36,851 bases of DNA from Coleofasciculus sp. B1-GNL1-01 (GTDB lineage Bacteria > Cyanobacteriota > Cyanobacteriia > Cyanobacteriales > Coleofasciculaceae), in assembly GCA_040220235.1 (NCBI GenBank), contig JAVJTO010000121.1. The stretch is one strand, 5' to 3'. How positions within the stretch are numbered: position 1 is the first letter of the stretch; the number at the start of each line of letters is the position of its first letter. Position numbers and translations under genes: made by a program. The notes under the pieces were generated by a model that ran no database searches, had not been told where the DNA came from, and saw only the letters and a list, made by a program, of their open reading frames with translations. Positions 3 to 13,107 of the stretch are shown piece after piece.

Positions 3-185
3 CGGAAGACGATCAGCGTCGGGATACGGCTTGAACCCCAGGATTGGGAAAACCTCAATCAGCTAGCAGCCAGTCTGGGAATGACCCGCACGGAACTGAT
101 CACCCAAATATCCAGAGTCCAAAATCCACAAGACTTACAAGGGTTTCAAAAGGCGAAATATCTGGGGGAATCCTCAGCCAATTAA
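3..185 (+). CDS. RHH/CopG-like DNA-binding protein, unit 1 (5' end outside the window; not in ORF track)
   Basis: My translation: RKTISVGIRLEPQDWENLNQLAASLGMTRTELITQISRVQNPQDLQGFQKAKYLGESSAN*. Clear paralog of 340..555 (RLEPxDWE, LGM(T/S)R, identical C-terminus LGESSAN). Confidence 0.8.
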   Translation, partial: RKTISVGIRLEPQDWENLNQLAASLGMTRTELITQISRVQNPQDLQGFQKAKYLGESSAN

Positions 186-343
186 TCTTGGAAACCCAAG
201 AGGAATTGGCATATCTGGAACAAAAGTTACCTCGATTGAGGGCGCGGCTTAGCTGTCTTCAACAGCTATACCGGGATTTGCAGCAAAAAACCAGTGAAGA
301 CGGCGACGAGGAAGACGAAGTTGGCGATGAGGAAGGAGAATGA
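44..343 (+). CDS. Coiled-coil ORF with acidic tail in the -1 frame of RHH unit 1 (conserved part 164..343; TTG start at 44 doubtful)
   Basis: GGILSQLILETQEELAYLEQKLPRLRARLSCLQQLYRDLQQKTSEDGDEEDEVGDEEGE* is paralogous to the -1 frame at 534..740. Its stop overlaps the ATG of RHH unit 2 (ATGA, 340-343). Confidence 0.65.
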   Translation: MGKPQSASSQSGNDPHGTDHPNIQSPKSTRLTRVSKGEISGGILSQLILETQEELAYLEQKLPRLRARLSCLQQLYRDLQQKTSEDGDEEDEVGDEEGE

Positions 344-555
344 CTAACAAGCGCGGTAGACCAAAATCAGACAGGAACACCAAGACGGTGACATTGAGAC
401 TCGAACCGAGGGACTGGGAATTATTCCGTCAGAAAGCCAAAGCTCTGGGAATGTCGAGATCTCAGTTAGTGCAGAGACTAGCCAGAGGAGAAATACGGAT
501 CGATTCGGCGATACTCACAGAGGAACTACTGCTGGGGGAATCATCCGCGAACTGA
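340..555 (+). CDS. RHH/CopG-like transcriptional regulator, unit 2
   Basis: KRGRPK basic arm, beta strand KTVTLRL, helix-turn LGMSRSQLV typical of RHH proteins; SD-like AAGGAG just upstream. Confidence 0.8.
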   Translation: MTNKRGRPKSDRNTKTVTLRLEPRDWELFRQKAKALGMSRSQLVQRLARGEIRIDSAILTEELLLGESSAN

Positions 556-740
556 TTGATGAAAATGACCAGTTAACCGTATATCACAGTTCGCAAATAG
601 AATTCCATAACAACCGACTCAAACAGCTAAGCAATAGAAGGGCAAGGCTAGAACGTCTTTATGCCGAGTTGCAAACAAAGACTGGTAAAAACCTTGATGA
701 TGAAGACGAGGTTAGCGACGATAAAGGAGAGAATGACTAA
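534..740 (+). CDS. Coiled-coil ORF with acidic tail in the -1 frame of RHH unit 2 (no canonical start; not in ORF track)
   Basis: GGIIRELIDENDQLTVYHSSQIEFHNNRLKQLSNRRARLERLYAELQTKTGKNLDDEDEVSDDKGEND*. The frame is open 360..740 with no ATG/GTG/TTG before about 669; paralogous to 164..343. Confidence 0.65.
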   Translation, partial: GGIIRELIDENDQLTVYHSSQIEFHNNRLKQLSNRRARLERLYAELQTKTGKNLDDEDEVSDDKGEND

Positions 741-756
741 CAAACGCAGCAACTGA
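733..756 (+). pseudogene. Truncated start of a third RHH unit (MTNKRSN*)
   Basis: aaggagagaATGACTAACAAACGC repeats aaggagaATGACTAACAAGCGC at 333-354; similarity then ends. Confidence 0.55.
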
Positions 757-5163: not shown

Positions 5164-5932
5164 CTAATCCATTATTGCTTTGGGATTATCATTAAAACTG
5201 ATTAAATTCAAATGCTCCGGATTTTGAATCAGATAGTTAGTGACGAGCCGCATATAAAGCTTGATGAAATAACGCCTGAATTTCCAACGGATGTCCATAA
5301 ACCGCCATGCGACGGTCAATCATAAATGCGGCTTCGGGAACTAATAAGGTGGGAGTCATATCGAAGCGCTGGCTTAAGCAAATATCCAGAATTAACTGGA
5401 TACCGCGTTGGAATTCCAACCGATGGACAATACTTTCATCAGGTCGATTGGCGATTTGACACGCTTTTTCATACGCCCGCAAGAGAATAATCCACCACAA
5501 CCCCGAATCAACAGGCGTAACTCTACCAATTGCCCGTTGACCAAAATCTGGCTCAATGTTTTGAGTTGATGTCACCTCAAAACTAGCAGGCATTAAGCCT
5601 TCTCCCAAGCGAATCCCATCAATGAGCAGTTCTTTGCCTTGCCAGGTTTTCCTCACTTGGGCAAATAAGCCTTCACCGTCTTTTGTCCATAGTTTATCCG
5701 ACTGTAAGCCGAGGGTGAATTCCAAAAAGTTGCGGACAATTTCCCGCTCCCCTTGCATGAGAAACGCCAGTCCCGATGGGATAAAATCGCGGACAAAGCA
5801 GTGACCATAATTAAGTTGTTCTTCTTGGGGAACAGGTTCCTTAGAGGCGACAGTGCCAACAGGCTGTTGCTGATAACTCATAATCGAGAGTTTCAGTCGT
5901 TCTTGTGCTGCTTTGACCATCTGGTTATTCAT
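5164..5932 (-). pseudogene. Alkaline/neutral invertase (GH100) with internal deletion
   Basis: Motifs LNYGHCFVRDFIPS, GLMPASF, DFGQRAIGRVTPVDSGLWWIILLRAY, FMIDRRMAVYGHPLEIQALF. ORF stops at 231 aa; an invertase-like C-terminus NYLIQNPEHLNLISFNDNPKAIMD* follows immediately in another frame (5238..5164). Confidence 0.8.
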
Positions 5933-9474: not shown

Positions 9475-12400
9475 ATGGCGAGAAATTGTTTGCGGATTAA
9501 TCATCAAGGTGATTCGATTCAACTTTCCTGGCAACGCGGACAATCTAATCCTCGCCCTGCGCCATCAGTAACATTTACACATCCCTTTGACAAGCAAGCT
9601 TTAGTTGACTTGCGCTGGTATCTAGAAGAGTATTTGCGTTTTCCCTATGGCATTTATCCAGATCATGCCGCCAAGATTGAGCAAAAGTTTCAATATTGGG
9701 GAGAGCAGTTGTTTGAATTAGTCTTTCGCAGTAGTGAGCAAGCGCGGCAATTTTTTCAGGCGGCGACTTACGAAGGGTTGAATCAGTGCGAACTGGTGAT
9801 TACATCCGATAGTCCAGAGGTGCTGAATTTGCCTTGGGAGTTATTGTACTCGCCGAGCGATCGCCAATTTCTCGCACCCTCTTTAGCAGGGATGTCTCGC
9901 AGTCTCAGCGAGTATGCTGTCCGGGCAGAAATGGGTGATTTACCCCAGGATAAGCTGAATATTTTGCTGGTGATTGCCCGTCCTTATGGTGAAACTGATA
10001 TTGGGCTGAGAACCATTGCCCGTCCGTTGCTGGAAGCATTATCAAATATTCGCCAAAAAGTCAATCTCAAAGTGTTGCGTCCACCCAGCTTTGAGCAGTT
10101 CGAGCGAGAACTGAATGCCAATCGCGGGTTTTATCACATCGTTCATTTTGATGGACATGGGGATTTTGACGCCAACAGCATCGGATTTCAGCATACTTTG
10201 GGGGCTGCGGGGCAGGGAGTGTTGGTGTTTGAAAAGAATGATGGTTCGCCCGATATTGTTACGGCGGCACAGATTGCTCAGAATTTGGCAGATTGCCGCG
10301 TGCCGATTTTTGTCTTGAATGCTTGCAAATCGGCGCAGGAGGGAGAGGAAAAGTTTTCTTCTGTGGCGACGCGCTTGGTATCTTTGGGGGCTAAGGGTGT
10401 GGTGGCAATGGCGTATTCTGTCTATGCCCAAGCCGCTAAACATTTCATGGGGCGGTTGTATGGGGAGTTGGCGGCGGGTGCGAGTCTCGACAGTGCTGTG
10501 GCGGCGGGGCGAAAGGACGTTTTGAATAAGCCGCAGCGCCCTAGTCCCAAGGGCGATAAGCCTCTGCAAGATTGGCTGGTGCCCGTGCTATATCAGCAGG
10601 AATCCTACCAGCCGTTTATTCCCTCAACTACAGATGCAGATGTTCTGGATATTGAGGATTTCTTAGAGCCAACGGTTAGCAATTTGGTGGGGTTCCCAGA
10701 GGAGGGGGCTTACGGCTTTATTGGGCGAGACTACGATATTTTGCGGTTAGAGCGGGCATTTCGCCAAAACAATATCGTGCTGTTGCAAGGCATGGCTGGC
10801 GTGGGCAAAACTGAGTTAGCTTGTGGCTTTGCTCGGTGGCTAGAGGAGACTCAGGGACGTACTGGCAAGATGTTCTTCATGTCGTTTGAGCATGGGGCGA
10901 CGCTGAGTAATGTAGTGAATCAAGTGGGAAGGGAAGTTTGGGGCGACAAGTTTTCCCAGTATCGGGCAGAGCAACAACAGCAAGCTGTACTGAAATATCT
11001 GAAAACTCAGCAAAGTCTGTTGATTTGGGACAACTTTGAGCCTGTGGCGGGGTTTCCTGCGGGGAATGAGCCGTTGTTGAATGCGAGTGAGCGAGACAAT
11101 TTGCAACGGTTTCTCAAAGATTTGCGCGGCGGGAAGTCTTGGGTATTGATTACCAGTCGCCGAGAGGAGCGTTGGCTGGATTGTGGTTACAGGTTAGTGG
11201 ATTTACGGGGACTGCGCGAGCAGGATGTGGAGGAGTTGGCGGCGCAGATTCTGCAAACGGCAGGGATAGATAGGGCGGAACTGTCTTCTGAGTATCTGGA
11301 GTTGCTGAAATTGTTGGGGGGACATCCTTTCTCTTTACGGGTTGTATTGCCCAACCTCAAGAAGCAGAATGTTCAGCAAGTGATTGATGCTTGGCGGCAG
11401 GGACTCGATGCCTTCCAGGGAGCAGAGGAAGAAGGGCGGGATAAATCTCTCAGGCTGTCGCTGGATTATTCGTTTGCCAAGTTATCTGACAGATGCCGTC
11501 GGCATTTGCCCTTTTTAGGTCTATTCTCTGAGCGAGTTAATATTTATACACTCTCTTATCTCTTTAAAGATTGTGGCTTCGTGAATTTGCTGGATTTTAG
11601 GCATACATATCAGGCTATCTTTGGGGAAAACCTAGAAATAGAGGATTGGTTAAAAATTCTAAACGAGGCAGTAGAAGCAGGTATTTTAGAAAATCTGGCT
11701 GACGGTATTTATAAAATTCACCCTGCTCTACCTTGGTATCTGCGTCAACAGTTATCTCAACATTACAATCTTGAGGAACTTAGCAAAATTGAAAAAAAGT
11801 TGCTGCTTTTATACTTAATAGTAGCTGCGGCTCATGACATACAATACCAAGGCAATGCAGATAGAGCAACTACAGTCTTATTAATTGAAGAGCCAAACCT
11901 ATTGCAATATTTGCGATTTGCACAAAACCAAAAGGCTTGGGATGCAGCCGCAGGAATTTTAAGAGCTTTAGGTCAAGTTTATGATATCCTCGGTTTTTTT
12001 GCAGAATATCGATTATTGCGAGAAAGGGCGCTTGCTCAAATTGGTATAAACTTGGTGGAGGTTAAGGCAAAGGATGAAGGTGCTTTTGGATTTTGGACAC
12101 TATTAAAAAGTGCTGATGCTCTAGAAGCGCTTCGACGGGGTGAAATTGGGGAAGCTAGAGTGATTCATCAAGAAATTCTAGATGCATACACAGCGTTAAA
12201 TGACTCATCTGTCATTGGCGAAATTGCGATTGCCTATGTCAATTTAGGTACAATAGCACGAGAAAATCGTGATTTTGATGCAGCTTTTAACTATTATCAA
12301 AGTGCGCTGAAAATTTATAAAGATGTAGGTAATTCTTCTCAGAAAGCTGCGATTTATTACGAACTAGGAGTGACTGCACGACAAAAATGGGATTTTGAAA

Positions 12401-13107
12401 CTGCAATTGGCTACTACCAAAATAGTTTTAACATTTATCAAGATACTGGAGATTTTCATAGACTTATCGGTATTTACCAGGAAATGGGTATAATAGCACG
12501 ATATAAAGGAAATTTTGCTCAAGCCATTGTTAAGTATGAAAAAGCTCTCCATATTTGTAAACAATTAGGGCATGCTTACTTTGCTGCTGGTCTTTTCCAC
12601 GAGTTGGGAGAGGTAAAAAAGAAACAAGGATATTTGGAGGATGCAAGAAATTATTACAACAAAGCCCTCCAAATATATGAAGATAAGCAGGATTGGCAAA
12701 ATGCTTCAGATGAATATCAGGGATTAGGCGAAGTAGCGAAAGCACAAGGGGAAATCGATGAGGCAGAGGCATATTTTAAAAAAGCTCTTGAAATAAGGGC
12801 TGCGGCAAAAGATTGGTTTAAAGTAGCAGCAACGCTGGTTGAAATAGGCGAAATTTTAGAGGCTAAAAGAGAGGAGTTTGAAGCTTTAATAGTTTACATA
12901 CGGCTCTTTATAATTGATAGCCAACATAATAGAGCAGAATTTTGTTTTCGAGAATTGATTAGTTCAGATATCTGGAATTTAGGTCGAATGATTAAAGTGT
13001 TGGGAAATAGTAAGTTTGAGGCGGTTTGGCGAGAGGTGACAGGTGAGGAGTGTCCAGAAGAGCTACGTTCAGCAATTCAGGCAGCAAGTGAAGAAAGCGA
13101 GGAATAA
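9475..13107 (+). CDS. CHAT (caspase-like) protease - STAND/NB-ARC-like NTPase - TPR protein
   Basis: CHAT dyad HIVHFDGHG and VLNACKS, LPWELL; FIGRD, Walker A GMAGVGKT, Walker B LLIWDNFE, LITSR, LGGHPFSL; C-terminal TPR array (AYVNLG, YYELG, FHELG, YQGLG). Confidence 0.92.
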   Translation: MARNCLRINHQGDSIQLSWQRGQSNPRPAPSVTFTHPFDKQALVDLRWYLEEYLRFPYGIYPDHAAKIEQKFQYWGEQLFELVFRSSEQARQFFQAATYEGLNQCELVITSDSPEVLNLPWELLYSPSDRQFLAPSLAGMSRSLSEYAVRAEMGDLPQDKLNILLVIARPYGETDIGLRTIARPLLEALSNIRQKVNLKVLRPPSFEQFERELNANRGFYHIVHFDGHGDFDANSIGFQHTLGAAGQGVLVFEKNDGSPDIVTAAQIAQNLADCRVPIFVLNACKSAQEGEEKFSSVATRLVSLGAKGVVAMAYSVYAQAAKHFMGRLYGELAAGASLDSAVAAGRKDVLNKPQRPSPKGDKPLQDWLVPVLYQQESYQPFIPSTTDADVLDIEDFLEPTVSNLVGFPEEGAYGFIGRDYDILRLERAFRQNNIVLLQGMAGVGKTELACGFARWLEETQGRTGKMFFMSFEHGATLSNVVNQVGREVWGDKFSQYRAEQQQQAVLKYLKTQQSLLIWDNFEPVAGFPAGNEPLLNASERDNLQRFLKDLRGGKSWVLITSRREERWLDCGYRLVDLRGLREQDVEELAAQILQTAGIDRAELSSEYLELLKLLGGHPFSLRVVLPNLKKQNVQQVIDAWRQGLDAFQGAEEEGRDKSLRLSLDYSFAKLSDRCRRHLPFLGLFSERVNIYTLSYLFKDCGFVNLLDFRHTYQAIFGENLEIEDWLKILNEAVEAGILENLADGIYKIHPALPWYLRQQLSQHYNLEELSKIEKKLLLLYLIVAAAHDIQYQGNADRATTVLLIEEPNLLQYLRFAQNQKAWDAAAGILRALGQVYDILGFFAEYRLLRERALAQIGINLVEVKAKDEGAFGFWTLLKSADALEALRRGEIGEARVIHQEILDAYTALNDSSVIGEIAIAYVNLGTIARENRDFDAAFNYYQSALKIYKDVGNSSQKAAIYYELGVTARQKWDFETAIGYYQNSFNIYQDTGDFHRLIGIYQEMGIIARYKGNFAQAIVKYEKALHICKQLGHAYFAAGLFHELGEVKKKQGYLEDARNYYNKALQIYEDKQDWQNASDEYQGLGEVAKAQGEIDEAEAYFKKALEIRAAAKDWFKVAATLVEIGEILEAKREEFEALIVYIRLFIIDSQHNRAEFCFRELISSDIWNLGRMIKVLGNSKFEAVWREVTGEECPEELRSAIQAASEESEE

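Follow-up and report, generated by a model that had tools for sequence, protein, structure and literature searches.

Tandem ribbon-helix-helix genes with a conserved coiled-coil extension in the -1 frame: a candidate frameshift family with an additional start in filamentous cyanobacteria

Tandem units and a change of frame at the G run

The start of contig JAVJTO010000121.1 from Coleofasciculus sp. B1-GNL1-01 carries a small array of predicted ribbon-helix-helix (RHH) genes, each overlapped and extended in the -1 frame by a coiled coil (CC). The window analyzed here is the first 36,851 bases of this contig (assembly of 8.66 Mb in 172 contigs), and the array fills bases 3-756 with two and a bit units arranged head to tail. 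Unit 1 is truncated by the assembly because the window begins at base 1 of the contig. The CC stop of unit 1 and the start of unit 2 overlap as ATGA (340-343). Both RHH open reading frames (ORFs, frame 0) end in LGESSAN before the stop codon (...KAKYLGESSAN in unit 1), and CTGGGGGAATC is common to both units (162-172 and 532-542). From the run of five G within this sequence, the -1 frame encodes a heptad-rich helix with an acidic tail, GGILSQLILETQEELAYLEQKLPRLRARLSCLQQLYRDLQQKTSEDGDEEDEVGDEEGE in unit 1 (from 164, GGILSQLI...) and GGIIRELIDENDQLTVYHSSQIEFHNNRLKQLSNRRARLERLYAELQTKTGKNLDDEDEVSDDKGEND in unit 2 (from 534, GGIIRELI...). In unit 2 the -1 frame stays open over 360-740, and no ATG, GTG or TTG occurs in it ahead of the G run. 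An earlier sequence-only reading had reported the shared ends, the motif, the -1 peptides and the start-less frame of unit 2, all of which are confirmed, and had proposed that each unit makes a short RHH protein and, by a programmed -1 shift, a long RHH-CC protein.

The frame-0 ORFs of the window score just under the cut-offs of curated RHH profiles in every case: NikA-like at 25.7 bits (cut-off 27; unit 2, E 1.3e-5), RHH_4 at 24.9 bits (cut-off 25; unit 1, E 2.1e-5) and RHH_1 at 19.1 (cut-off 20.5). Several homologues carry a precomputed PF01402 assignment and the source name "ribbon-helix-helix protein, CopG family". PHROGs gave a weak "transcriptional repressor" match for the RHH part and nothing more, and the -1 frame peptides of the window units matched no family.

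Related units occur in other cyanobacteria. The -1 peptide of unit 2 found matches in 18 of 61 related genomes, the window's own included; beyond that one, they came from 17 of the 36 further genomes that belong to the window's family, and from none of the 24 that represent 24 other families of the order. A profile built from ten -1 peptides matched 11 of 401 genomes sampled across the phylum, adding four further families. Units were tallied as paired RHH and CC profile matches, counted when their 300-nt contexts were distinct. The CC lies in the -1 frame in 39 of 40 such pairs (about 30 cyanobacterial genomes, several families), and the sole in-frame pair comes from Okeania; rows of the tally that have no RHH partner are contig edges, disrupted units or unrelated coiled coils. 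The -1 arrangement is not due to chance, and the conservation of the G run, for which the sequence-only reading had suggested a survey of cyanobacteria, holds across families. Most units have the site YTGGGGGAAT, in which T_GGG_GGA_A is invariant. The variants are GTGGGGGAAC (loci L038 and L047), CTGGGGGAAC (L041), CTGGGAAAC (L048), CTGGGAAAATCC (L086) and CTGGGGGGGATT (L085, the in-frame case).

The frame under selection changes at the G run, from 0 to -1. When 18 units are anchored at the site, pairwise identity in frame 0 is 0.89 for L, 1.0 for G and 0.78 for E and then decays, and distant members end in frame-0 tails as varied as ECCAS, ELLSS, ECSTT and ESLPN. Read in frame -1 from the run, the same units give G 1.0, G 0.79, I 0.46, L 0.55, a variable position, Q 0.69, L 1.0, I 0.89, a second variable position and E 0.89. 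Beyond the run, nucleotide substitutions are silent in frame -1 (ATC/ATT; CTC/CTT/CTG/TTG; TTA/CTG) but change the residue in frame 0, which reads S/F/C/L.

Both window units can form a hairpin that starts 6 nt after GGGGGAA, and both arms of the unit 2 hairpin differ from those of unit 1 in a compensatory fashion. The region +7 to +86 of unit 1 folds at -27.5 kcal/mol (z -4.4 against mononucleotide shuffles). Across 15 diverse units, 84% of the cells of a 9-pair stem are paired and four pairs carry compensatory changes; the covariation score was reached by 0 of 500 shuffles, and partners slid by 1-3 columns pair in only 11-39%. Synonymous choices covary between the arms (CAACTG with CAGTTG, CAATT with AATTG, CAGCT with AGCTG). 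The pairing of GCGAACTG with CAGTTCGC sits at a different downstream place.

Shine-Dalgarno-like (SD-like) motifs are enriched upstream of the site. With the motif list given in the available part of Sharma et al. (PMC4066793) and a window of 6-17 nt upstream, 13 of 20 units have a match, compared with a background of 27% elsewhere in frame within these genes, and 10 of the 13 have at least one match whose end is 10 or 11 nt from the site. Unit 2 satisfies the list (GAGG/AGGA at 10-11 nt).

Two relatives carry textbook X_XXY_YYZ heptamers at the same position, G_GGA_AAC in L048 (CTG_GGA_AAC) and G_GGA_AAA in L086 (CTG_GGA_AAA). Both belong to the heptamers used by insertion sequence (IS) elements, as listed in PMC4066793. 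A further sub-family of representatives, known from protein alone, reads ...SGK(I/L)... at the site, consistent with GGGAAA.

An intact CC is also present where a usable -1 start is lacking, in 4 of 21 units (window unit 2, L086, L018 and L028). Unit 2 has -1 stops at nt 5 and 17 after its ATG and no ATG, GTG or TTG thereafter, and L086 has a -1 stop 110 nt into the RHH gene. Within the genus, the ratio of non-synonymous to synonymous differences (pN/pS) in the unit 2 CC is 0.10-0.43 in five of six pairs and 1.2 in one, on small counts; the signal for the unit 1 CC is less clear. The genome encodes a tRNA-Gly(CCC), which can re-pair perfectly one base back on the G run.

The in-frame pair is represented by proteins P0107 (130 aa, Okeania sp. 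SIO3B5), P0067 and P0106 from three Okeania assemblies, with 91-94% mutual identity. They read ...PTEELFLGGILKQLIQE... (...EELFLGGILKQLI), with the junction ...FLGGILKQLI, and align with the RHH ORFs up to LG and with the -1 peptides from GG. The DNA of P0107 (L085), the one of the three whose DNA was read, has CTG_GGG_GGG_ATT with 7 G, and the fusion cuts the -1 ORF short right after the site. Its closest relative, L086 (88%), is frameshifted. When 401 genomes of the order were searched with the fusion, no other in-frame RHH-CC came up.

The AlphaFold2 model of the Okeania fusion monomer (mean pLDDT 77.6) has two short helices (27-39 and 44-52, pLDDT 75-86) followed by a long helix (62-109, pLDDT about 95), and no strand is assigned in it. 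Foldseek against the PDB gave no match at E <= 0.001 for this model (best E 0.28); the best rows, none significant, are CopG (TM to target 0.67), CopA, NikA, NikR, Arc and MatP. The best sequence-profile match to a solved structure in the PDB is MazE6 (E 0.013), and the homodimer prediction for the fusion scored 0.29 against a mark of 0.42.

Table 1. Positions of array features in the window and of the gene divergent from related arrays
Feature	Position	Strand	Remarks
Unit 1 RHH ORF (frame 0)	<3..185	+	5' end cut by contig start; TAA stop 183-185
Unit 1 purine-rich AAGG	150..153	+	10 nt before G run; fails strict SD-like motif list
Unit 1 candidate shift site CTG_GGG_GAA	162..170	+	G run 164-168
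Unit 1 hairpin	177..210	+	GCCAATT (177-183) with AATTGGC (204-210), inner stem CTTGG/CCAAG; spacer 6 nt after GGGGGAA
Unit 1 CC and acidic-tail ORF, -1 frame	164..343	+	TGA stop 341-343
Unit 2 RHH ORF, 71 aa	340..555	+	translation ends ...EELLLGESSAN (stop)
Unit 2 SD-like AGAGGA	519..524	+	10-11 nt before shift site
Unit 2 candidate shift site CTG_GGG_GAA	532..540	+	G run 534-538
Unit 2 hairpin	547..594	+	GCGAACTG (547-554) with CAGTTCGC (587-594); spacer 6 nt
Unit 2 CC and acidic-tail ORF, -1 frame	534..740	+	predicted frameshift product 133 aa
Remnant third unit start	733..756	+	ATGACTAACAAACGC..TGA (MTNKRSN, stop); overlaps end of unit 2 CC ORF
Divergent 155-166-aa gene, contig C171	L021:790-1254	+
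Divergent 155-166-aa gene	L022:1864-2328
Divergent 155-166-aa gene	L029:2426-2890
Divergent 155-166-aa gene	L032:3114-3611
Divergent 155-166-aa gene	L033:2624-3121

The open -1 frame and its own start

The CC frame is often open far upstream of the G run. All 41 of the "longer" database matches to the CC profile are the RHH gene read in the -1 frame from an upstream start, and such long ORFs make up 45 of the 61 family representatives at 50% identity (64 matches, 3 of them unrelated long proteins). The CC begins at residue 59-117 of these ORFs, mostly at 63-74. Gene callers would extend any open frame, so openness itself was tested by redrawing the synonymous codons of each RHH gene from the genome's own usage. 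Each RHH gene contains no or one -1 stop where 3.2-5.9 would be expected (18 units, all with P 0-0.058), and stops in the +1 frame match expectation (P 0.15-1.0). The codon choice involved is T at the third position before AA, AG or GA, found in 3 of 339 codons compared with 124 of 716 other codons (17 units). The CC region in its own frame (58/251 versus 84/412) and long ORFs of the genome (31.1% in both contexts) served as controls.

Overall, the -1 frame is free of stops inside the RHH gene in 19 of 21 units, and in 17 of 21 an ATG in this frame precedes the RHH ATG by 4-25 nt, in most cases at -13, -16 or -19, and follows a TAnAAT-like box by some 12-15 nt. The place of this box suggests a transcript beginning 5-8 nt ahead of the -1 ATG. 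The sequence-only reading had named a conserved independent start as a finding that would refute it, with the inside of the DWE codons as an example of its place; a start does exist, lying upstream of the RHH ATG and not within those codons. In the same genome, contig C171 holds a complete unit that has the open frame with its start, which window unit 2 lacks. Units inside arrays have no upstream -1 ATG, and TAA or TAG follows soon after the RHH start. The same unit types recur as first units elsewhere with few nucleotide differences, and the open -1 frame of array-internal units may thus be inherited and not maintained by selection where they now lie.

The -1 peptide over the RHH gene differs by 20-38% of its amino acids, compared with 0.6-21% in the RHH frame, at 7-19% nucleotide difference. 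What is kept is the passage through the RHH gene in the -1 frame, not the peptide sequence. The upstream ATG and the open frame together indicate that the CC can probably also be produced with no frameshift.

An A_AAA_AAG shortly before the RHH ATG was weighed as a possible early shift site but set aside, since it is confined to one unit type (L035, which is the C171 unit, L013 and L019). It lies in the frame of the upstream -1 ORF, and a -1 slip there would meet a TGA overlapping the RHH ATG.

Frameshifting, independent initiation and the alternatives

We propose that ribosomes starting at the RHH ATG would mostly stop five codons after Leu-Gly-Glu and yield the short RHH protein of about 71 aa. 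A fraction may slip back by one base, with tRNA-Gly re-pairing from GGG to GGG and tRNA-Glu shifting from GAA to GGA through a middle G.U pair. The slip would be aided by the SD-like stretch about 10 nt upstream and the hairpin 6 nt downstream, and the slipped ribosomes would run on into the CC and acidic tail to give RHH-CC (133 aa for unit 2). Units that come first or stand alone have a further ATG, 13-19 nt ahead of the RHH ATG, from which the -1 frame is open; it probably serves to make an RHH-less "X-CC" protein as well, whose N-terminal half is unconstrained. Through the ATGA overlaps of arrays, downstream units would be tied to ribosomes that come in reading the -1 frame. What the sequences show is the anatomy and its conservation, the switch of the selected frame, the covarying hairpin, the avoidance of stops and the in-frame orthologue; slipping and its rate, X-CC production, a repressor role and array coupling are inferred, and the short and long forms presumably differ in oligomer state and operator binding.

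We put the probability that frameshifting is a real, selected route at roughly 0.58. We think that both routes operate, with frameshifting giving RHH-CC and independent initiation giving X-CC, and that lineages lean on one or the other. We favor both because frameshifting by itself would leave the open -1 frame and its ATG unexplained, and two ordinary genes would leave the hairpin, the SD-like enrichment, the heptamers, the start-less units and the Okeania fusion unexplained. The original proposal of a short and a shifted long product is partly supported: it gains from the conserved site, the frame switch, the hairpin, the heptamers and the Okeania fusion, and is weakened by the separate -1 start and the open -1 frame. 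A fuller scheme is offered tentatively, as possible and no better than that: three proteins from one mRNA region, namely an RHH dimer, RHH-CC by a -1 shift on G_GGG_GAA and X-CC as a partner or antagonist whose N-terminal half need only stay open, with the frame choice in unit 1 setting the output of the array through the ATGA overlaps.

Several observations weigh against frameshifting. The window site, G_GGG_GAA, is not an X_XXY_YYZ heptamer, as the sequence-only reading had rightly stated. In the available part of Sharma et al. (PMC4066793), the G_GG.G tetramer is not shift-prone in E. coli and its weak signal is ascribed to SD-like internal initiation. The two purine-rich stretches named earlier are both present, AGAGGA in unit 2 and AAGG in unit 1, of which AAGG fails the strict list and leaves unit 1 without a strict SD-like motif. 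Part of the hairpin pairing arises because the arms encode the conserved QLI and DQLA; the changes on both arms do not follow from the conserved QLI...DQLA. The units are kin, and counts across them overstate independence. The stretch is contained in 20 public runs, 8 of which are RNA libraries, which can contain DNA; contigs from three RNA-library runs and one DNA run have no indel at the G run, and contigs drop rare variants and do not report starts, ends or levels. The Okeania gene could have arisen by joining two proteins that interact, in which case it does not prove a trans-frame product. The -1 peptide over the RHH gene evolves as if unconstrained, which is odd for a functional protein segment. 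Given the conserved -1 ATG and the open -1 frame, most units do not need frameshifting to express the CC.

The leading alternative is overlapping genes without any shift, in which the RHH protein starts at its own ATG and the CC is reached only from the upstream -1 ATG through an overprinted spacer. The G run would then be a dual-coded junction (LGE in one frame, GG in the other), with each of its positions fixed by one frame if LGE and GGI are both selected. The avoidance of -1 stops across the RHH gene, the -1 ATG that 17 of 21 units have 4-25 nt before the RHH start, the prevalence of long ORFs among representatives (45 of 61) and the reported lack of shifting at G_GG.G in E. coli (PMC4066793, in the part available) agree with it. 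We nevertheless consider it unlikely as the whole account, as it has no explanation for a covarying hairpin 6 nt past the run, for the SD-like enrichment, for the canonical heptamers of L048 and L086 or for an intact, selected CC in units that have no -1 start, and the Okeania fusion truncates the -1 ORF just past the site. The G run might also act as a Shine-Dalgarno sequence, with the CC begun at a nearby Ile, Leu or near-cognate -1 codon. GGGGGA is similar to GGAGG, an ATG (L017) or TTG (L011) follows shortly after the run, and this is the cause that Sharma et al. gave for the G_GG.G signal in E. coli (PMC4066793, available part). Such initiation is improbable: no conserved start lies at a workable spacing (most units have ATC 1 nt past the run), the GGGAAAA and GGGAAAC variants are poor SD sequences, and a hairpin from 6 nt downstream would impede it.

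Transcriptional slippage, in which RNA polymerase inserts a G in the run, would give an mRNA for the same LGGI fusion and hence the product of a -1 ribosomal shift, and the length of the run does vary among relatives (5 G; 7 G in Okeania). Runs of five G are short for known bacterial transcriptional slippage sites, however, and G_GGA_AAA and G_GGA_AAC are not homopolymers. A downstream hairpin and an upstream SD-like motif are ribosomal stimulators, and the public-run contigs carry no indel, which is weak evidence since contigs drop rare variants. We judge slippage by the polymerase to be a slim prospect. Decay of an in-frame RHH-CC ancestor by a one-base deletion, or an assembly error, such that the CC is no longer made, is scarcely credible. 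In-frame relatives do exist and many copies lie at contig ends or near IS elements and an intron, but the same break recurs in 39 of 40 units from many assemblies and families, and the CC frame is intact and conserved, with pN/pS below 1 in 5 of 6 pairs.

The E. coli dnaX gene (tau/gamma) has a signal of three parts. The candidate frameshift signal resembles it: in most units an SD-like element sits about 10 nt before the putative slippery site, and a hairpin follows at about 6 nt. As with dnaX, the gene is cellular and non-mobile and would give two products that share their N terminus. In dnaX, the ribosome shifts on A_AAA_AAG and stops at once, so that the shifted product is short, whereas on G_GGG_GAA (or G_GGA_AAA/C) the shift would give the long product with an added domain. 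The spacing rule for SD-like stimulators is described in the available part of PMC4066793. In IS911 and the IS3-family orfA-orfB genes, a small DNA-binding OrfA is joined by a -1 shift to a downstream -1 ORF, as proposed for RHH-CC. The downstream frame, OrfB in IS911, can also start independently. Its SD-like and stem-loop stimulators have candidate counterparts in the RHH-CC units, and G_GG.A_AA.C and G_GG.A_AA.A are among the IS heptamers (PMC4066793, in the same part). The RHH-CC units differ in having no transposase and no inverted repeats, in adding a 60-aa coiled coil, in a -1 frame that is open over the entire upstream gene with an ATG near the first start, and in their tandem arrays.

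The predicted RHH-CC architecture, an RHH domain with a C-terminal coiled coil, is that of P22 Mnt and E. coli MatP. These RHH proteins oligomerize through the C-terminal coiled coil. Both are single ORFs, in contrast to the RHH-CC units, and no significant sequence or fold match to RHH-CC was found. The nested out-of-frame genes Rz/Rz1 of phage lambda are alike in that a second ORF in another frame of the same DNA is kept open by selection; in the RHH-CC units, unlike Rz/Rz1, the overprinted part shows no amino acid constraint and the frames are also linked by a candidate slippery site.

To our knowledge, few bacterial genes that are cellular and non-mobile have a conserved -1 frameshift (dnaX, copA, csoS2, cdd and a small number of others). 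The copA and carboxysome cases are covered in the available part of Atkins et al. 2016 (PMC5009743). If frameshifting is confirmed, a whole family of small regulators in filamentous cyanobacteria would join them. Its slippery site would fall beyond the canonical heptamer rule, and nature supplies neighboring "controls" in the form of canonical heptamers, an in-frame allele and units that have or lack a start of their own. That -1 stops are avoided throughout the upstream gene is a clean, testable signature of dual coding in bacteria. The family also carries a caution: even where the signals at a frame transition speak well for frameshifting, a plain second start can be present too. Current gene callers report these loci in one of two ways, as a CopG protein of 71 aa or as a hypothetical ORF of 130-170 aa whose N terminus has no meaning.

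The sequence-only reading knew of no description of the system, and a full-text literature search (listings and starts of abstracts) returned no account of an RHH frameshift family in cyanobacteria. In its available part, Antonov et al. 2013 (PMC3711429) has neither "ribbon" nor "CopG" and mentions "cyanobacteria" in a table alone; the GeneTack supplements, which list frame-transition clusters, could contain the family. The first 300,000 characters of PMC5009743 contain neither "ribbon-helix" nor "CopG".

Probable array rearrangement, neighborhood and related genes

The CC stop overlaps the next RHH ATG at all seven array junctions examined, as ATGA or ATGACTAA. The end of contig C171 (L021) from the same genome carries one further complete unit and one partial unit. 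The latter is 90.6% identical to unit 1 over 170 nt and breaks off right at the G run, indicating that the assembly broke within the array. In contigs of two public runs (X2 and X3), bases 733-747 (15 nt) continue through 16 bases into window base 1. This join yields a full unit 1 start after a remnant-type end, so the order of units differs between strains, and the arrays seem to recombine at the conserved unit start. Tandem Repeats Finder reported no array in the window, as the units are too diverged; a blastn search for distant matches to unit 2 in plasmids found none, an Rfam scan of bases 1-1000 found nothing, and a promoter and terminator scan of the C171 end stayed at chance level.

The window array is followed by a VWA CoxE-like gene (855-2021, E 1e-50). 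In five genomes of the window's family, a conserved gene of 155-166 aa (MKHSDWLRLQSEGE...) is divergent from the first unit (Table 1). It has no Pfam, PADLOC or PHROG match and falls in cyanobacterial "hypothetical protein" clusters of the Atlas; it is likely a target or partner of the RHH array. The array neighbors, the VWA CoxE-like gene and the conserved divergent gene, include no toxin partner of the kind that adjoins RHH antitoxins in type II toxin-antitoxin systems, and PADLOC gave no matches.

Array neighborhoods elsewhere contain many restriction-like and transposase genes. At L022 (3187-7479; G003:C57), from the same genus, one unit of the array is split by three inserted genes, which encode an IS200-like transposase, a reverse transcriptase/maturase of a group II intron with HNH, and an IS605 OrfB/TnpB-like protein; the remaining array and the VWA CoxE gene come after them.

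Several other RHH genes were considered as in-frame RHH-CC and rejected. L073 (G624:C48) and L082 (G683:C106) belong to a sub-family with a shorter G run (TTGGGGAAT, CTAGGGGAAT), after which frames 0 and -1 both stay open for 35-50 codons. L060, L061, L063, L065, L066 and L084 encode an RHH fused to a larger domain. In all of these except L066, a like N-terminal RHH (MPKGQKKSKG...LSRSELVEQIGRG) is fused in frame to a domain of 100-130 aa with a YVGSS..NL..RF motif; L066 has such an N-terminal RHH with a different tail. L083 couples its RHH to another kind of C-terminal domain. P0044 and P0058, each a hybrid with a single member, switch frame upstream of the site and were taken as indels or errors.

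Elsewhere in the window, a 231-aa ORF (5237-5932, minus strand) matches only positions 1-198 of the 435-position alkaline/neutral invertase profile and is possibly a truncated or split gene. A 1210-aa protein (9475-13107, plus strand) combines a CHAT protease-like domain with TPR repeats, and at L029 a CHAT protein adjoins the array.

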